Part shown: positions 45,227 through 53,308 of the stretch, one piece after another | Position numbering within the stretch: position 1 is the stretch's first letter | Layout of the letters: each line of letters opens with the position of its first letter | NCBI GenBank assembly: GCA_965652295.1 | Contig: CBFGTS010000006.1 | Location: forward strand, 128,001-192,000 | DNA from: an uncultured Haloferula sp. | GTDB taxonomy: Bacteria > Verrucomicrobiota > Verrucomicrobiia > Verrucomicrobiales > Akkermansiaceae | Direction of reading: 5' to 3' | DNA: 64,000 nucleotides | The notes under the pieces: model-generated | Database searches by the model: none | Told to the model about the DNA's origin: nothing | The model's input: only the letters and a program-made list of their open reading frames with translations | Translations under genes and position numbers: made by a program

Positions 45227-46210
45227 ATGAACCAAAGAACCGTCGGAATCGCGGAGCGGCAGGTGTCGGAGATCGGGCTCGGCTGCTGGCAACTCGGCGG
45301 CTCCGACTGGGGAAATGTCGATGACGCCGCAGCCTTCGCCATCCTCCACACGGCGGCGGATGCCGGCGTCACCTTCCTCGATACCGCCGACGTCTACGGA
45401 AACGGCCGTAGCGAGTCGCTGATCGGCAAGTTCCTCAAGGAACGCGGGAATGACTTCTTTGTCGCCACCAAGCTCGGCCGGATGCCGGATCTGTATCCCG
45501 ACCACTACAGCGAAGCCGGCGTGCGGGCGGCCACCGAGGCCTCGCTCCGGCGACTCGGCGTGGAGACGCTCGACCTGACCCAACTGCACTGCGTCCCGCC
45601 CGCGGTCCTGGAAGACGGGGAGATCTTCGACTGGTTGCGGAAGCTGCGGGACGAAGGCAAGATCCGGAATTTCGGAGCCAGCGTGGAATCGATGACCGAG
45701 GCGGAGATCTGCCTCCGCCAGGAAGGGCTTTGTTCGCTCCAGATCATCTTCAACGTCTTCCGCCAGAAGCCCGCGGAAGCGATCTTCGCCCGGGCCCGGC
45801 AACAACAGGTCGGGATCATCGTGCGACTTCCCCTCGCCAGCGGCCTGCTTTCCGGACGGATGACCGCCGGGCAGAGCTTCGCCGCCAACGACCACCGCAG
45901 CTACAACCGCGACGGCCAGGCCTTCAACGTTGGCGAGACCTTCGCCGGATTGCCTTTCGAAAAGGGAGTCGCTTTGGCCGATGAACTGAAGCCTCTGGTG
46001 CCGGACGGTATGACCATGGCCGACATGGCGCAGCGTTGGATCCTCGACCACGAGGCGGTTTCGACCGTGATCACCGGGGCCTCGCGGCCCGCCCAGGCGA
46101 CTGCCAACGCCCGCGTGTCGACCCTGCCACCGCTGCCCGCCGATCTTCACCGGAGCTTGCGCGGGTTCTATGAAACCGAGGTCGCCCCCCACATCCGCGG
46201 TCCCTATTGA
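45227..46210 (+). CDS. Aldo/keto reductase
   Basis: IGLGCWQLGG, DTADVYG, ATK, LDLTQLH, PLASGLL. Confidence 0.92.
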   Translation: MNQRTVGIAERQVSEIGLGCWQLGGSDWGNVDDAAAFAILHTAADAGVTFLDTADVYGNGRSESLIGKFLKERGNDFFVATKLGRMPDLYPDHYSEAGVRAATEASLRRLGVETLDLTQLHCVPPAVLEDGEIFDWLRKLRDEGKIRNFGASVESMTEAEICLRQEGLCSLQIIFNVFRQKPAEAIFARARQQQVGIIVRLPLASGLLSGRMTAGQSFAANDHRSYNRDGQAFNVGETFAGLPFEKGVALADELKPLVPDGMTMADMAQRWILDHEAVSTVITGASRPAQATANARVSTLPPLPADLHRSLRGFYETEVAPHIRGPY

Positions 46211-46253
46211 TCCTCCGGTTGCGAAAACCCAAGGCGGCACCACACTTCCGCCA

Positions 46254-47186
46254 GTGCCCGATCCATCCGCCGCCCGCCGCTTCGAAGTCGTCCTCAACCG
46301 CGAGTCGGGGACGCTGAAAGATCTCTGGCACGACGATTTCCCGCAGGAACTGGCGGCCGTTTTCCAAATGGAGGGAATCGCCCCAAACATCCGCGTGACG
46401 CGCGGCCGCGAGCTGGATGCCACGCTCGACGCGGCCATGGCCACCCGGCCGCAGGCCCTGATTATCGGCGGCGGCGATGGCACCGTCTCGCACGCCGCGA
46501 GCCGGATGCTCGGCGCGGACATTCCGATCGGCATCCTGCCCTGCGGGACCTTCAATCTGGTCGCGCGGGACCTCGAGGTGCCGCTCGATCCCTTCGAGGC
46601 GGCGCGGGCGCTGGGCACCGCGGAGATCGACGAAGTGGACGTGCTTTCCGCCAACGGCCGCACCGCGCTGTGCAATCTGATGCTCGGCTTTTACCCCCGC
46701 ATGGCGCGACGGCAGGAAGAGTTCCACGGACGGGCGTGGTGGAGGAAATCGGCCCGCATCCTGTGCGACCTGCGCGACGCCTTCTACCGCTGCCCGCCCC
46801 TGATGCTGACCCTGGAAAGCGCCGAGCACGGAGAGATCCATCGCGTCACCCGCTTCGCGGCCTTCGTGCCGGGCGACTTCGACGACATCCTTTCCGTGAT
46901 CCCGAAGCGCATGTCGATGGATGGCGGACGGATCGGCGTGTACGTCTCTAGGCACCGCAGCGCGCTGGCACTGGCGCGGGGGATGGCCGCTTACGTGCTC
47001 GGGCTGATGGAGCGCGAGCCCGGCCTCGAACATTTCCATGCCACGCATCTGACCATCACTTCCGGCCGACGGCATCGGCTGGCGGCCTCGATCGATGGCG
47101 AAATTCTCGACATCTCCCTGCCTCTGCGGCTCGATCTGAGGCCCAAGGCGCTGCGGGTGCTCCGTCCGCGCGCCGAGAACGACTGA
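46254..47186 (+). CDS. Diacylglycerol kinase-family lipid kinase (YegS-like)
   Basis: LNRESG, GGGDGTV, LPCGTFNLVARDL, IDGE; start uncertain. Confidence 0.85.
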   Translation: MPDPSAARRFEVVLNRESGTLKDLWHDDFPQELAAVFQMEGIAPNIRVTRGRELDATLDAAMATRPQALIIGGGDGTVSHAASRMLGADIPIGILPCGTFNLVARDLEVPLDPFEAARALGTAEIDEVDVLSANGRTALCNLMLGFYPRMARRQEEFHGRAWWRKSARILCDLRDAFYRCPPLMLTLESAEHGEIHRVTRFAAFVPGDFDDILSVIPKRMSMDGGRIGVYVSRHRSALALARGMAAYVLGLMEREPGLEHFHATHLTITSGRRHRLAASIDGEILDISLPLRLDLRPKALRVLRPRAEND

Positions 47187-47195
47187 AACTCCGCT

Positions 47196-48011
47196 TTGGC
47201 TTTCTTCATCCAGATTTCCGACCTGCACTTTGGCGCCGAAGTGCCCGCCGCCGTCGATGCACTGCTTGAGACCATCGCCCACACCCACCCGGACGCCGTC
47301 CTTTGCTGTGGCGACTTCACGATGCGCGCGCGACGCTTCGAGTGGCGGGCCGCCCGGGATTTCCTGGAAAAGATCGCCGTCCCCGTGGTCTCGATCCCCG
47401 GCAACCACGACATCCCCGCCGCCAACCAGCCGCTCGACCGCCTGCTCCATCCGTTCCGCCGCTACAAGCGCTTCATATCCGACGACATGGAGCCGCACGC
47501 CAGCTTCGGTGGCCTGGAGGTTTCCGGCATCAACACCGCCCGCCCCTGGGGTTCGTGGCCGACCTTCGATTGGTCGCACGGCGCGGTGAGCGTGGCCCAA
47601 TGCGCGGCGCTGCCCTTCAAGTTCACCTCGCACGCCGGCATGCGCGCCGTGATGATCCACCACCCGCTGCGCGGCGAGGCTGGCCAGACCCGGAAGCTGT
47701 TGCGAAAAAACGGGCTGCTGCTCGCCGCCATGGCCTCCGCGAAGGTCGATCTACTACTGGCAGGCCATTTCCACCGCTCCTATATCGACGTGATGCCGCT
47801 GCCGGTCGGCGAGGGCAACATCGTCCTTTCCCATGTCTCCACCGCCTGCTCCCGCCGGACGAAAGGCGAACCCATGGGTTTCCACGGCATCGAGACCGGC
47901 GAGAATTCGGTGACAATCACGCAGTACTGCTTCAACGACGGGAAGTTCGAGATCGCCTCCACTCATCTCTTCCATCGCGAGGAGAATGTTTGGTCGAAGC
48001 AGGGTGCCTGA
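47196..48011 (+). CDS. Calcineurin-like metallophosphoesterase
   Basis: SDLHFG, GD, PGNHD, HHP, GHFH. Confidence 0.9.
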   Translation: MAFFIQISDLHFGAEVPAAVDALLETIAHTHPDAVLCCGDFTMRARRFEWRAARDFLEKIAVPVVSIPGNHDIPAANQPLDRLLHPFRRYKRFISDDMEPHASFGGLEVSGINTARPWGSWPTFDWSHGAVSVAQCAALPFKFTSHAGMRAVMIHHPLRGEAGQTRKLLRKNGLLLAAMASAKVDLLLAGHFHRSYIDVMPLPVGEGNIVLSHVSTACSRRTKGEPMGFHGIETGENSVTITQYCFNDGKFEIASTHLFHREENVWSKQGA

Positions 48012-48954: not shown

Positions 48955-49302
48955 TCACCCGATCGCCGCCTCCCACTCGGCTTCCTTGAAGCCGGTGAGG
49001 CCGATGCCGTTCCCCACGACGAACGGGCGCTTCACGAGGTTGCCGTGACGGGAAAGCAGGTCGAAGGCCTCGGCCTCGCTCATGGCGGCCAGGCGGTCCT
49101 TCAAATTCAGCTCGCGGTAATCACCTCCAGCGGTGTTGAAGAGGCGCTTCAGGTCTCCCATGGCCTCGCGCACTTGCTTCAGCTCCGCCACCGTCGGCGG
49201 GGTTTCGCGAATGGCAATCGGCTCGTAGGTGAGGCCTCGGGCGTCGAGCCATTTCAGGGCTTTCCGGCAGGTATCGCAGCCGCGGTAGACGTACACTTTC
49301 AT
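48955..49302 (-). CDS. ArsC/Spx (YffB-like) family protein
   Basis: CDTCRKA, LFNTAG, NLVKRP; ATGA overlap with folB. Confidence 0.88.
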   Translation of the reverse strand: MKVYVYRGCDTCRKALKWLDARGLTYEPIAIRETPPTVAELKQVREAMGDLKRLFNTAGGDYRELNLKDRLAAMSEAEAFDLLSRHGNLVKRPFVVGNGIGLTGFKEAEWEAAIG

Positions 49303-49661
49303 GAAGACGGGCGTTCTCTTTCCAGGCTCACGCCGACCCACTCGGTTTGGGGCAGGATGAATTTCCGGATCCGCACCTTCACCGCGACGGCACCGAAGCT
49401 GTCCAGCACCAGGTCCGCGATTTCATCGGCCAGGGTTTCCACCAGCTTGCGCTCTCCTTCCGCGGCGAGCTTCTCCACGGCCAGCGAGACGGCGTGGTAG
49501 TCGATCGTCCGGCCGACGTCTTCGGCCATGTCGGCGAAATCCGTCGCCGGGCGCATGTCGAGGTCGATCTTCAACATCTGCGAACCGGCCCGTTCTTCAT
49601 CGGGCACGCCGATGCGGGTGAAGATCTCCAACCCGCGGACATGGATCCATGCGGCATTCAT
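49299..49661 (-). CDS. folB: Dihydroneopterin aldolase
   Basis: IGVPDEER..Q, TIDY, LVETLA, RK..VGV. Confidence 0.9.
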   Translation of the reverse strand: MNAAWIHVRGLEIFTRIGVPDEERAGSQMLKIDLDMRPATDFADMAEDVGRTIDYHAVSLAVEKLAAEGERKLVETLADEIADLVLDSFGAVAVKVRIRKFILPQTEWVGVSLERERPSS

Positions 49662-50695
49662 GATTCGGGGCCGCCGAGGACTTCCTCGATCAGGCGGCGG
49701 GTCGGTTGGTTAAGGTCCAGCTCCAGGGCTTCCTCCGGCGTCAGCCAGCGGAATTCCTCGGCTTCGTCGTTGAGCACCACCTCGCCGGAAATACGGCGGG
49801 CGACGTAGTTGAGCAGCAGGAAGTGCTCGGGCCGTTCGAATTCGTCGGAGTCGATGCAGTCCTGCACCATCACGAAGACCGGGGCGGCGACATCCAGGCC
49901 GGTTTCCTCGCGGATCTCGCGCACCAGGGCGGCGGCGGCGCTTTCGCCGCGCTCGATCTTCCCGCCGGGGATCCCCCAGCGATGGCCCCACTTGTGGGTT
50001 TTCACCATCAGCACGCGACCTTCCTCGTCCTCGATCAGGGCACCGACGGTGGCAACCGGCCGCTGTTTCTCGCCCGGGCGCTCCATCAGGCGGCGCAGTC
50101 CGTCGAGGTCCTGCACGGTGAGGTGCGGCCTCGCCAGCGCCAGCGCGCCGGCGTGGGTGTAACCGGTGAGCACCGCCACGGAAGTGAGCTGCGCGTGGTG
50201 CGCGGTCTCCACATCGTGGGTCATGTCACCGACGAAGGCAGTCTGGGAAGGAAGCAGGGCGTGGCGCTCGATGATTTCCAGAATGACCTCGCGTTTGTCG
50301 AGGACGCCGGAGTAGGTGGCTTCGAAATACGGGCCGAGGCCGAATTCCTCAAGCTGCCCGTGGAAGGCGTCGGAGTCCATGCTGGTCAGGACGAAGCAGC
50401 GGATGCCGCGCCGCCGGCACCATTCGAGTTTTTCCCGGGCATGGGGCAGCACGGTGACTTTTTCCAGTGATCCGGAAAAGGCCCTGCGGAAATGCACCTC
50501 GAGCTTGGCGAGCGGCACGGCGGGCAGCATTTCCTCGTAGAACTCGCGGTAGGGCAGCCGGAACCGTTGGCGGAAGGCCTCGCGATCGAGCGGCGGCAGA
50601 CCGTAGACGGCCAGCACCCGGTTGGTGGCATCGAGCACCGGCGGGAGGTCGTCCACCAGCGTGCCGGACCAGTCGAAGATGATATTTTGAAACAT
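49658..50695 (-). CDS. HAD hydrolase-NUDIX hydrolase fusion
   Basis: HAD IFDWSGTL, LTS, K, VGDMTHD; NUDIX box GGKIERGESAAAALVREIREETG. Confidence 0.88.
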   Translation of the reverse strand: MFQNIIFDWSGTLVDDLPPVLDATNRVLAVYGLPPLDREAFRQRFRLPYREFYEEMLPAVPLAKLEVHFRRAFSGSLEKVTVLPHAREKLEWCRRRGIRCFVLTSMDSDAFHGQLEEFGLGPYFEATYSGVLDKREVILEIIERHALLPSQTAFVGDMTHDVETAHHAQLTSVAVLTGYTHAGALALARPHLTVQDLDGLRRLMERPGEKQRPVATVGALIEDEEGRVLMVKTHKWGHRWGIPGGKIERGESAAAALVREIREETGLDVAAPVFVMVQDCIDSDEFERPEHFLLLNYVARRISGEVVLNDEAEEFRWLTPEEALELDLNQPTRRLIEEVLGGPES

Positions 50696-51066
50696 CAGCC
50701 GAGAGAGAAACGGATCGACTTCACTTTTCCCTCGCCGAGGGAGGCGCGCAGGTTGGTGAGCAGCCTGCCTTTCATCTGCTCAAGCTGGAAGCGCATCGCG
50801 GGCTGGAGCACCTTGAGGGTGAGGCAGCCGTTTTTCAGCGACTCCGGAGATGCATGGCGGGCGACGAGATCGCCGGCGATTTCGCGCCAGAGCTCGCGGA
50901 GGCGTTCCTCGTCGATGCCCTCGGCGGCACCGACCTGGTTCAGGATCGCCGCCAGGAATTCATCCGGCCGATGGACTCCGGCGTCCGGGTGTTTCGGCTC
51001 CTCGCCGCCCCGCCACTCGGCGAGGATGGCGCGACGGAGCCGGGACATCCGGTCACCCCTGGCCAT
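50695..51066 (-). CDS. DUF721/DciA-family protein
   Basis: LWREIAGDLVARHASP..LKNGCLTLKV..KSIRF; start 51066 or 51048. Confidence 0.8.
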   Translation of the reverse strand: MARGDRMSRLRRAILAEWRGGEEPKHPDAGVHRPDEFLAAILNQVGAAEGIDEERLRELWREIAGDLVARHASPESLKNGCLTLKVLQPAMRFQLEQMKGRLLTNLRASLGEGKVKSIRFSLG

Positions 51067-51067
51067 A

Positions 51068-51304
51068 TCACGCGTCGCCGTCGTCGCCGATGGCTTCGAC
51101 CGGGCAGCCCTCCATGGCCTCGCGGCATTGGGATTCCTCCTCGGCGTTCTCCGGTTGCTTGTAAACGTACGAGTAGCCTTCGTCGTCGGAGCGGGTGAAA
51201 TTGTTCGGCGCGGTCTCGCGGCAGAGGTCACAGTCGATGCACTGGGAATCGACGTAGAACTTGCCTCCGATGTTTTCCTCGTTTTTGTCTTCGCGGTCAG
51301 CCAT
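51068..51304 (-). CDS. Ferredoxin (single cluster)
   Basis: CIDCDLC...CPVEAIG. Confidence 0.92.
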   Translation of the reverse strand: MADREDKNEENIGGKFYVDSQCIDCDLCRETAPNNFTRSDDEGYSYVYKQPENAEEESQCREAMEGCPVEAIGDDGDA

Positions 51305-51435
51305 GGTGTGTGGGTCCGGGTTCCTTGGCCTGTGAATCGCGCCAGCGGGCCCGGCGTGCAAACCTTTTCCGTGCTAGCGGGGCGTTCGTTTCCACTGGCC
51401 AAGAGAGCGGCCGATTCCTATCACCGGCTCGTCCC

Positions 51436-52455
51436 ATGCCCGACGAGCCCGACCAACCGTCCAAACCCTCCCGCTCGCGGCCGCGTCTGAACGACCTGGC
51501 CGGCGAAACTTTGGAAGACGAGCTTTGGAACCTTGATGACGACGATTCGCAGCCGGCGGACGTCGAGGTGCAACCGCGCAATCCCAAAGCCAGGCCCGCG
51601 CCGCGAGCGGTGAGCCAGCCGGAGGAGGTCGAGGACAAGCCGGGGGAGGGAGCCGAAGCGCCCGCCGGGGAGCCCCCTGCTGAGCAGCCGGAGAAGCACG
51701 AGGCGCTCGCCGCGAAGAAGCCGAAACCGAGCCGCCCCCTCCACGCATCCGAGGACGAACTGGACCTCCCGGAAGAGGAGGCCGATGACACGATTTCCGC
51801 CAAGCCGACCGAGCCCGAAACCGCTCCGGAAACCGGACCCGACGTGGAGGAGTTCGAGAAAAAGCGCCCCGCAGCCGCGGCCGCCACGCCTCCGGTCGCA
51901 GGAGCGAACTCGCAGAAAATCGAGAAGATCGGGCTGATCTCGCTCGCCGTCGTGGTGGTCGGGATCGCCATCTGGGCCACCGCCGGGCTTTTCTCCAGCG
52001 TCAGCACCACCGAGCTGGGCGAGGATTTTCCCGACCTCCCGGCGGAAGGGAAATACGCGACGATCGACGAAGTGGACACCTACTGGCGCAAACCGGTGCG
52101 TGAGGGGGAAGATGCCGATGCCGCCACGGCCGGCGTGCTTTACATCCCGATCGTGTCGGTGACGCTCGACGAGGGCGGGTCCGGCGTGCTGCGCATCCTT
52201 TTCCGCGACGAAAACGGGGAGTTCGTGGGCGATGCGATTTCCCGCCGTTTCGCGAATGGCAGCTTCACCGAAAGCGGTTCGGAAACGGCCGACTTCGCCG
52301 CAACGGACGGCTTTCGCGAGATTTCCGAGTTCAATGGCTACCGCGTCGGCACCGAGCGGTGGACGGCCGAGATCTACGAAGGCCCCTCGGCCGATGCCTC
52401 CGGCAGCGAATTCAAGCAGCTCGTGACCACGCCGCTGTTCCCGAAGACCCGGTGA
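51436..52455 (+). CDS. Hypothetical bitopic membrane protein
   Basis: Acidic/Pro-rich N-terminus, single TM IGLISLAVVVVGIAIW, beta-rich C-terminus. Confidence 0.7.
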   Translation: MPDEPDQPSKPSRSRPRLNDLAGETLEDELWNLDDDDSQPADVEVQPRNPKARPAPRAVSQPEEVEDKPGEGAEAPAGEPPAEQPEKHEALAAKKPKPSRPLHASEDELDLPEEEADDTISAKPTEPETAPETGPDVEEFEKKRPAAAAATPPVAGANSQKIEKIGLISLAVVVVGIAIWATAGLFSSVSTTELGEDFPDLPAEGKYATIDEVDTYWRKPVREGEDADAATAGVLYIPIVSVTLDEGGSGVLRILFRDENGEFVGDAISRRFANGSFTESGSETADFAATDGFREISEFNGYRVGTERWTAEIYEGPSADASGSEFKQLVTTPLFPKTR

Positions 52456-52474: not shown

Positions 52475-53308
52475 ATGAATGACAGCAACTCCGCCGTTCC
52501 GCCGCTCGTGCCCCGTGAAGGCTGGCACGTCATGCACCTCTTCTACCATATCGATCACTCACAGTGGTCGCTGCTCGACGACGAAGACCGCCGCCACGCC
52601 AAGACCCGCCTGACCGAGTTGGTCCAGGAAATCCGCAGCACACCGGACACCCATCTGCTCATCTTCGCCGTGGCCACGCCGAAGGCCGACCTCGGCTTCA
52701 TGCTGCTAACGCCCGATCTCCAGACGGCGAACGCCTTCGAAAAGCGGCTCACTCTTTCGCTCGGGCCCGACATCCTCACCCCGGCCTACTCCTATCTCTC
52801 CCAAACCGAGCGCTCGGAATACACCACCACTTCCGAGCAGTACGCCGAGGAAACCCTCAAGGGCGAGAAGGGCCTCGCGCCGGACTCCCCGGAATTCGCC
52901 GCGGCGATGAAGGAATTCGAGGAGCGGATGGACCACTACCTGAAGCACCGCCTCTATCCCGTCCTGCCCGATTGGCCGGCGATCTGTTTTTACCCGATGT
53001 CGAAGCGCCGCAGCGGGGCCGACAACTGGTATTCGCTCCCCTTCGAGGACCGCAAGCGCCTGATGGGCGGTCATGCCCGCACCGGCCGAACCTACTCCGG
53101 CCGCATCCTCCAGCTCATCACCGGCTCGACCGGCTTTGACGAGCACGAATGGGGCGTGACCCTGCTCGCCAAGGACACGATCGACATCAAACAGATCGTT
53201 TACGAAATGCGCTTCGACGAAGTCTCCGCCCGCTATGGAGAGTTCGGCGACTTCTACATCGGCATGCAGCTGCCGCTGGCCGAGCTGTTCAAGCGGCTGT
53301 GCCTGTGA
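52475..53308 (+). CDS. hemQ: Coproheme decarboxylase (ChdC/HemQ; chlorite dismutase-like family)
   Basis: EGWHVMHLF, CFYPMSKRR, WYSL..R..LMGGH, ITGSTGFDEHEWGVTL, YEMRFDEVSARYGEFG. Confidence 0.88.
   Translation: MNDSNSAVPPLVPREGWHVMHLFYHIDHSQWSLLDDEDRRHAKTRLTELVQEIRSTPDTHLLIFAVATPKADLGFMLLTPDLQTANAFEKRLTLSLGPDILTPAYSYLSQTERSEYTTTSEQYAEETLKGEKGLAPDSPEFAAAMKEFEERMDHYLKHRLYPVLPDWPAICFYPMSKRRSGADNWYSLPFEDRKRLMGGHARTGRTYSGRILQLITGSTGFDEHEWGVTLLAKDTIDIKQIVYEMRFDEVSARYGEFGDFYIGMQLPLAELFKRLCL

Follow-up and report, generated by a model that had tools for sequence, protein, structure and literature searches.

A HAD–Nudix fusion coupled to folB as a candidate for both dephosphorylation steps ahead of dihydroneopterin aldolase in Haloferula and its relatives

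Introduction

Two dephosphorylations lie between guanosine triphosphate (GTP) cyclohydrolase and dihydroneopterin aldolase (FolB) in folate synthesis. In the available portions of three reports, the first is carried out by Nudix enzymes (FolQ, NudB and AtNUDT1) and the second by a non-specific phosphatase (PMC1971073, PMC4161248, PMC9544542); the earlier note on this DNA gave the same background, a FolQ/NudB step and a last step left to non-specific phosphatases, and those portions agree with it (PMC1971073, PMC4161248). Here we describe a gene of an uncultured Haloferula sp. (Verrucomicrobiota, Akkermansiaceae) that joins a HAD domain to a Nudix domain and overlaps folB, found in a stretch of 64,000 nucleotides (contig CBFGTS010000006.1, positions 128,001 to 192,000) that we call the window. 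Our reading, to which we attach a probability of roughly 0.6, is that this HAD–Nudix fusion, coupled to the only folB of its genome, would perform both dephosphorylations, and we regard it as quite probable that the HAD/Nudix module serves FolB. The module is an unannotated combination of known kinds, a HAD phosphatase and a Nudix pyrophosphatase, and on sequence grounds a strong candidate for both of the steps that precede FolB.

FolQ (YlgG) of Lactococcus lactis, NudB of Escherichia coli and NUDT1 of Arabidopsis have the Nudix fold and a complete Nudix box, as does the Nudix part of the fusion, and the reaction predicted for that part is theirs, dihydroneopterin triphosphate (DHNTP) to dihydroneopterin monophosphate (DHNMP) and pyrophosphate. 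FolQ lies in a folKEPQC cluster, as stated in the available portion of its description (PMC1971073), and the fusion is likewise tied physically to a folate-synthesis gene. The fusion's Nudix part is not, however, an orthologue of NudB by sequence, and it shares its polypeptide with a HAD domain and, in related proteins, also with FolB. On the HAD side, the phosphoglycolate phosphatase Gph, the pyrophosphatase BT2127 and the beta-phosphoglucomutase-like HADs have in common with the fusion their fold, the motif I nucleophile and motifs II–IV. Unlike these C1-capped subfamily IA HADs, the fusion family carries Ser or Cys at Asp+2, the second position after the nucleophile, and a His just before the last Asp of motif IV (86/91 sequences); the best curated model gives it 59.8 bits against a cut-off of 225, and its HAD is joined to Nudix and FolB or encoded next to them.

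Mycobacterial MutT1 (Rv2985) also combines a Nudix domain with a second phosphohydrolase domain, which is not known to be a HAD, and its Nudix part matches that of the fusion structurally (9cxx, 5ggc). Its substrates, though, are oxidised guanine nucleotides or diadenosine polyphosphates, it is without a link to FolB, and the MutT1 model NF052459 gives the fusion 34 bits against a cut-off of 475. Riboflavin synthesis, a GTP-derived vitamin pathway with a dephosphorylation long put down to unspecific phosphatases, follows the same logic as our reading: there the HAD phosphatases YigB and YbjI of E. coli fill the "non-specific phosphatase" step, although they carry a canonical DxD motif, are not known to occur fused to enzymes of their pathway, and belong to another pathway with another substrate. 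A full-text search, with most subscription journals outside its reach, returned no paper on a HAD–FolB or HAD–Nudix–FolB enzyme or on the DWSGT motif, and no curated family was found for the module. Public annotations of relatives read "phosphoglycolate phosphatase", "HAD hydrolase-like protein", "NUDIX domain-containing protein" and "FolB domain-containing protein".

A two-domain gene overlapping folB

The open reading frame (ORF) at 49658..50695 on the minus strand encodes 345 amino acids, with Pfam HAD_2 at residues 5–175 (E-value 3.9e-24) and NUDIX at residues 214–338 (E-value 6.2e-24). It stands in the middle of five minus-strand genes that run head to tail, ferredoxin, dciA, the HAD–Nudix fusion, folB and an ArsC/Spx-family gene, with the following features:

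50078..50695, minus strand: HAD domain of the fusion, residues 1–206, C1-capped subfamily IA type (Pfam HAD_2)
50660..50674 (D8–T12), minus strand: HAD motif I, F-D8-W-S10-G-T12 (from the sequence)
49658..50077, minus strand: linker and Nudix domain of the fusion, residues 207–345, with the stop codon (Pfam NUDIX)
49895..49963, minus strand: Nudix box, G245-x5-E251-x7-R259-E260-I-R-E263-E264-T-G266-L267 (from the sequence)
49299..49661, minus strand: folB (dihydroneopterin aldolase), 120 amino acids (PF02152, E-value 6.1e-23)
51068..51304, minus strand: 4Fe-4S single-cluster ferredoxin, first in the string, ATG at 51304 and stop at 51070..51068 (Pfam Fer4_13, E-value 8.2e-23)
50695..51066, minus strand: dciA (DUF721) (Pfam DciA, E-value 4.9e-17)
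48955..49302, minus strand: ArsC/Spx-family glutaredoxin-like gene, last in the string (TIGR01617, 91.2 bits against a cut-off of 75.05)

Read from the sequence, the ferredoxin stop is separated from the dciA ATG by a 1-nucleotide gap, the dciA stop and the fusion start have one base in common (TGATG), and the fusion stop overlaps the folB start by 4 nucleotides (ATGA), as the folB stop does the start of the ArsC-like gene. The Pfam matches and these junctions bear out what the earlier note had claimed, a two-domain HAD and Nudix gene whose stop overlaps the folB start; its tightly packed ferredoxin–DciA–fusion–folB–ArsC string likewise holds, with gaps or overlaps of 1, 1, 4 and 4 nucleotides, and every neighbour keeps its name. 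The HAD–Nudix protein is real and conserved. All of the best 120 protein matches listed have both HAD and NUDIX Pfam domains, at 67–100% identity; among named organisms, Haloferula, Luteolibacter and other Akkermansiaceae (Verrucomicrobiota) come nearest.

Linkage of the HAD domain to FolB

We favour the reading of a fusion that performs both steps because relatives of its HAD repeatedly adjoin or fuse with FolB. The same-family sample comprised 61 genomes, of which 30 HAD loci were examined. A strong match to the HAD part (best E-value 4.5e-53 or lower) was present in 58 of the 61 genomes, and the 30 loci divide by architecture into 12 HAD–Nudix genes, 8 single-ORF HAD–FolB fusions without Nudix and 10 stand-alone HADs, with FolB fused or encoded by the gene directly downstream at 27 of them. 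The earlier note had proposed synteny with folB, folK and folE as a check; the folB part stood up, here and in metagenomes (see below), and no linkage to folK or folE was seen in the window's genome.

Beyond the family, 201 genomes of the phylum were sampled with the HAD counted at E-values of 1e-20 or lower, and it occurred in 28 of these (38 of 401 in a larger sample). All 15 loci of one genus, g3, are HAD–FolB fusions, and a protein cluster of that type is named Akkermansia muciniphila/Akkermansia sp. and annotated only "HAD hydrolase-like protein". HAD–Nudix followed by folB was found in four other families (loci L048, L050, L051 and L052), and HAD followed by folB at one locus of another family. 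Metagenomes gave a similar arrangement: on 80 contigs found by a degenerate DWSG pattern, 51 had HAD and Nudix in one ORF, and folB was the next gene after 42 of the 45 metagenomic HAD–Nudix genes with at least 450 nucleotides downstream.

Full fusions also exist. Of the 150 top-ranking representatives in a search of 1.84 billion protein clusters, 49 are at least 255 amino acids long, and by Pfam these include 16 HAD–FolB, 15 HAD–Nudix and 6 HAD–Nudix–FolB proteins; one more has a partial FolB match under the cut-off, and 11 have no second domain or other additions. Among the 120 best matches of one triple fusion (P0146), 22 are triple fusions, and HAD–Nudix–FolB is represented by at least 26 proteins; an uninterrupted triple fusion was found in none of the 401 phylum genomes. 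Evolutionarily, the FolB-fused state requires 21 changes on a tree of 250 HAD domains built with FastTree and 12 on a quick IQ-TREE tree of 66 rows, for which Nudix- and FolB-fused rows were thinned to <65% identity, 12 outgroup rows were added and ingroup HAD-only rows were omitted. Strongly supported branches alone force at least 2–3 changes per FolB architecture, and the counts are to be taken as recurrence and not as an exact number of events, because fusion and fission are cheap where genes overlap.

The same survey bears on an alternative in which the work is split differently: the HAD would be essential, removing all phosphates or acting on another phosphorylated pterin, with the Nudix domain as an accessory that clears, for example, oxidised or off-pathway pterin or guanine triphosphates. 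It is the HAD, and not the Nudix domain, that is the constant partner of FolB, given the 8 HAD–FolB fusions and 10 HAD/folB pairs without Nudix among the 30 loci and the absence of Nudix from all 15 g3 fusions, and no free-standing Nudix orthologue outside the 12 fusions was found in the same-family genomes (best E-value 4.1e-11). A Ser at Asp+2 might also favour substrates with a good leaving group, for example phosphoanhydrides, and the HAD pyrophosphatase BT2127 (3qu2) is among the structural neighbours. Against this, the Nudix domain, where it occurs, is highly conserved and has a complete box, 26 triple fusions join it to FolB as well, and the DHNTP pyrophosphatases known so far are, in the available portions of the literature, Nudix enzymes; we therefore hold this division of work to be unlikely. 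In the genera without Nudix, either another enzyme would remove pyrophosphate or the HAD would do more than one step.

FolB and the pterin branch in the genome of the window

The folB product matches PF02152 with 81.9 bits (cut-off 31.8) and TIGR00526 with 70 bits (cut-off 45), and falls slightly under the cut-off of the equivalog model TIGR00525 (69.9 bits against 72.15). Its closest entries in the PDB are dihydroneopterin aldolases, with 3o1k on top (E-value 2.9e-14), and E23, Y55, E75 and K100, which we take to be the catalytic residues of FolB, do not vary among 53 FolB sequences taken from HAD-linked loci. Across the phylum genomes, Pfam E-values of FolB range from 1e-15 to 1e-23 in HAD-bearing lineages and mostly from 1e-25 to 1e-37 in HAD-less ones, and by these scores the HAD-linked FolB is a divergent subtype.

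The genome of the window, which is 98% complete, has a single PF02152 match, the folB described here, together with a type IB GTP cyclohydrolase, FolE2 (PF02649, E-value 5.8e-94), one FolK and FolP; no PF01227 FolE was found in it. Since FolE2, FolK, FolP and one FolB are present, the pterin branch of folate is made de novo, and a route from DHNTP to dihydroneopterin is therefore needed.

In the route we propose, FolE2 would yield 7,8-dihydroneopterin triphosphate, from which the C-terminal Nudix domain would remove pyrophosphate to leave dihydroneopterin monophosphate. The N-terminal HAD would then hydrolyse the last phosphate via an aspartyl-phosphate on D8, with Mg2+ probably held by D157 and D161 and with K134 and T104 assisting, and FolB would convert dihydroneopterin to 6-hydroxymethyl-dihydropterin and glycolaldehyde. 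The domains, motifs, gene overlaps, recurrent adjacency and fusion with FolB and the remaining pathway genes are direct observations, whereas we infer what the enzyme acts on, which of its domains does which step and what Ser10 and His160 contribute to catalysis.

The folK gene of this genome lies elsewhere, in a panB–folK–dapB string (contig C8:65658-69192, locus L224). A second Nudix gene (246-amino-acid ORF) stands about 2.3 kb from folK, past a dehydroquinate-synthase-like gene on the opposite strand. It was considered as an alternative DHNTP pyrophosphatase, which it could be; it is without an operon link.

Catalytic residues and fold of the HAD domain

Residue conservation was taken from an alignment of 91 sequences and is numbered after the protein of the window. 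D8, W9, G11, P48, K134, G156 and D157 are invariant, and T12 (90/91), D16 (87/91), H160 (86/91) and D161 (90/91) nearly so. The motif I nucleophile, D8, is kept in all 91 sequences and at all 30 same-family loci, while the acid/base position Asp+2 (position 10) is Ser in 81 sequences, Cys in 10 and Asp in none. The motif reads DWSGT at 30/30 same-family loci and in 109 of the best 150 cluster representatives, and the earlier note had rightly read it so in the window's copy, with the second Asp missing and Ser10 in its place. Position 104 in motif II is Ser or Thr in 44/44 ingroup and 32/32 outgroup rows, K134 is present for motif III and GDxxxD for motif IV. Ser or Cys at Asp+2 is thus a fixed trait of a well-defined subfamily and not a defect of the window's copy.

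Structurally, an AlphaFold2 model of the fusion has a mean predicted local distance difference test score of 95.2 and a predicted template modelling score of 0.68, so that the relative orientation of the two domains is not fixed. The model and Foldseek comparisons show a Rossmann-like core with a helical C1 cap in the HAD part, which aligns to the HAD phosphatases 3mc1 and 2ah5 with template modelling scores of 0.84–0.86 (0.74–0.86 with 2hsz and 3qu2 included). A structure search with the same model found no solved chain that spans both a HAD and a Nudix domain, and none of the curated NCBIfam models exceeds its cut-off on either half of the fusion.

Mechanistically, loss of Asp+2 in canonical HAD phosphatases would slow phosphomonoester hydrolysis, and because Asp+2 is Ser10 here, proton transfers must run differently. 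His160, the family-specific residue of motif IV, or Asp16 are speculative substitutes for the missing acid/base. Phosphonatase, which has a DWAGT-like motif, was considered as a model for the chemistry and dropped, as no phosphonatase was among the sequence or fold matches.

The missing acid/base raises the question of whether the HAD might be catalytically impaired and instead bind pterin phosphates or act as a scaffold or regulator for FolB and the Nudix enzyme, a view to which the Ser or Cys in 91/91 members and all 30 loci lends itself. We give it only a slight chance of being right: D8, S/T104, K134, D157 and D161 show little or no change across deeply diverged sequences, HAD-fold enzymes such as the P-type ATPases and phosphonatase are active without Asp at this position, and since every other catalytic residue is kept, a dead domain is not expected.

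The label most often attached to such proteins suggests yet another role, that of a phosphatase of the phosphoglycolate type with a two-carbon phosphate as its substrate; this could be glycolaldehyde phosphate, should FolB cleave DHNMP itself. Public names of relatives and the best NCBIfam matches of the HAD part, which are Gph models, point this way, as would the weaker Pfam scores of FolB in HAD-bearing lineages. All Gph models remain far under their cut-offs, however (54–60 bits against 180–466; TIGR01449 54.1 against 180, NF009695 59.8 against 225), the Asp+2 of Gph-type enzymes is missing, FolB has its standard catalytic residues, and we know of no evidence that FolB takes a phosphorylated substrate, so that we place hardly any credence in this role.

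The Nudix domain

The Nudix box is complete from G245 to L267 (GX5EX7REUXEEXGU), and the Pfam NUDIX model gives 85 bits against a cut-off of 21.1. Its residues are strongly conserved (G245 in 51/51, E251 in 50/50, R259 in 48/50, E260 in 47/50, E263 in 49/50 and E264 in 48/50), and a further set is conserved specifically in this family: K235, W236, W240, H291, N296, Y297, N309, E311, W317, N329, P331, T332 and R333. Structural matches are to NudI and MutT-type Nudix proteins. The NudB model NF006961 reaches 31.3 bits against a cut-off of 103, over residues 219–293 only, and NudB itself (2o1c) ranks 20th among PDB matches of this part (E-value 1.8e-6). Homology was also tried as a guide to the substrate and did not discriminate, the best matches being uncharacterised MutT/Nudix proteins, NudI and GDP-mannose hydrolase. 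With the genomic linkage to FolB behind it, hydrolysis of DHNTP is the likely activity that we predict.

One related protein, P0179 (483 amino acids), has a Smr nuclease-type domain N-terminal to the same HAD–Nudix module (Smr–HAD–Nudix).

Distant DWSG-type HADs and possible origin

The nearest clade of HAD-only proteins has the same DWSG[T/V] motif, K134 and GDMxHD, and a branch supported at 99% divides it from the fused clade (IQ-TREE, 66 rows). No folB was found within 4 kb of its genes, which come from metagenome contigs of low guanine-cytosine content. Their neighbours are genes for ribonucleotide reductase, guanylate kinase, nucleoside 2-deoxyribosyltransferase, dCMP deaminase and thymidylate kinase, and a separate Nudix gene is directly upstream at 2 of 11 loci. 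The FolB-linked and outgroup clades agree in the core and in some of the cap (L47, P48, F52 and Y53), and the FolB-linked clade has the extra conserved cap residues N25, R42, F45, P58 and F73. Because distant DWSG HADs sit among nucleotide-metabolism genes, the pattern suggests that a nucleotidase/Nudix pair was recruited to a GTP-derived pterin substrate.

A PNP/UDP phosphorylase is also among the neighbours of distant DWSG HADs (contigs L148, L154, L217, L152, L187 and L213), and one of these contigs, L213, has two DWSG-type HAD genes almost in tandem.

These relatives could instead mean that the module still serves nucleotide house-cleaning, with the Nudix domain as a (deoxy)nucleoside triphosphate pyrophosphatase and the HAD as a (deoxy)nucleoside monophosphate phosphatase, and with the proximity of folB as inherited gene order. 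Such a role fits the Nudix part, whose top NCBIfam and PDB matches are of MutT, NudG and NudI types, and it also fits the outgroup HADs beside a separate Nudix gene and nucleotide-metabolism genes and the core and cap residues that both clades have in common. Inherited order cannot, however, explain repeated in-frame fusions of HAD or HAD–Nudix to FolB in several lineages, it leaves the 42/45 adjacency to folB in unrelated metagenomes unexplained, and the FolB-linked clade has conserved cap residues of its own; we consider house-cleaning quite improbable. Returning to a role in the pterin branch, we tentatively picture the DWSG HADs as a dedicated DHNMP phosphatase, with Ser10 and His160 in place of Asp+2, that would have come from a nucleotidase/Nudix pair, and Nudix, HAD and FolB as handing on labile pterins, sometimes within one polypeptide. 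This fuller picture is possible, at somewhat less than even odds.

Points against the two-step proposal and its meaning

Several observations weigh against the proposal that the fusion performs both dephosphorylations. The first concern the proteins themselves: Ser stands in place of the HAD general acid/base at Asp+2, the Nudix part is closer by sequence to MutT, NudI and NudG than to NudB, and distant DWSG-type HADs adjoin nucleotide-metabolism and not folate genes. Others concern linkage, which is incomplete. Three of the 12 same-family HAD–Nudix genes (L005, L006 and L012) are unlinked, with folB elsewhere in those genomes, and in one genome (G057) the two lie about 0.7 Mb apart; folB is not next to 3 of the 45 metagenomic HAD–Nudix genes, and in one further family (f8) four loci have the HAD alone, with folB absent from the 1.5-kb flank. 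Distribution adds to these points. FolB occurs in 189 of the 201 phylum genomes and the HAD in 28, so that most relatives do without it, as does a 1.6-Mb genome of genus g6 (G023), which has FolB; FolB being near-universal and the HAD confined to part of the phylum, the HAD is not required for folate synthesis generally. Most genera of the family, moreover, are without the Nudix partner, and there the two-step picture cannot stand unchanged.

In the classical folate pathway, DHNMP dephosphorylation alone has never been given an enzyme, and a conserved HAD fused to FolB would supply a gene for it. If the proposal is true, it would show by what route folate synthesis is completed in Akkermansia and related bacteria, which are common in the gut and the environment; thousands of proteins labelled "phosphoglycolate phosphatase" or "HAD hydrolase-like" would have their annotation corrected, and the HAD superfamily would gain a mechanistic variant in which Asp+2 is invariably lost.

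Neighbouring genes

Among the 30 same-family loci, ferredoxin and dciA lie directly upstream of the HAD gene at 27, and the same pair is upstream at two loci from other families of the class (L047 and L052). An arsC match after folB was found at the window's own locus only, and the ArsC-like gene is accordingly no conserved partner. Rfam and tRNA scans of the window returned no match, and by the empty Rfam scan a riboswitch is absent upstream.

Divergent from the ferredoxin gene is a plus-strand ORF of 381 amino acids (51310-52455), the N-terminal half of which is long, acidic, rich in Pro, Glu and Ala, and of low complexity. Further plus-strand neighbours, at 52475-53308 and 46170-48011, are of the chlorite-dismutase family (HemQ-like), diacylglycerol-kinase-like and calcineurin-like phosphoesterase types, with no evident connection to the folB string. 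Lastly, a plus-strand ORF at 48122-48823 matches the Xre/MbcA/ParS antitoxin C-terminal domain (E-value 3.9e-6) and, as it ends about 130 nucleotides before the convergent ArsC-like gene, is without an adjacent RES-type toxin gene.

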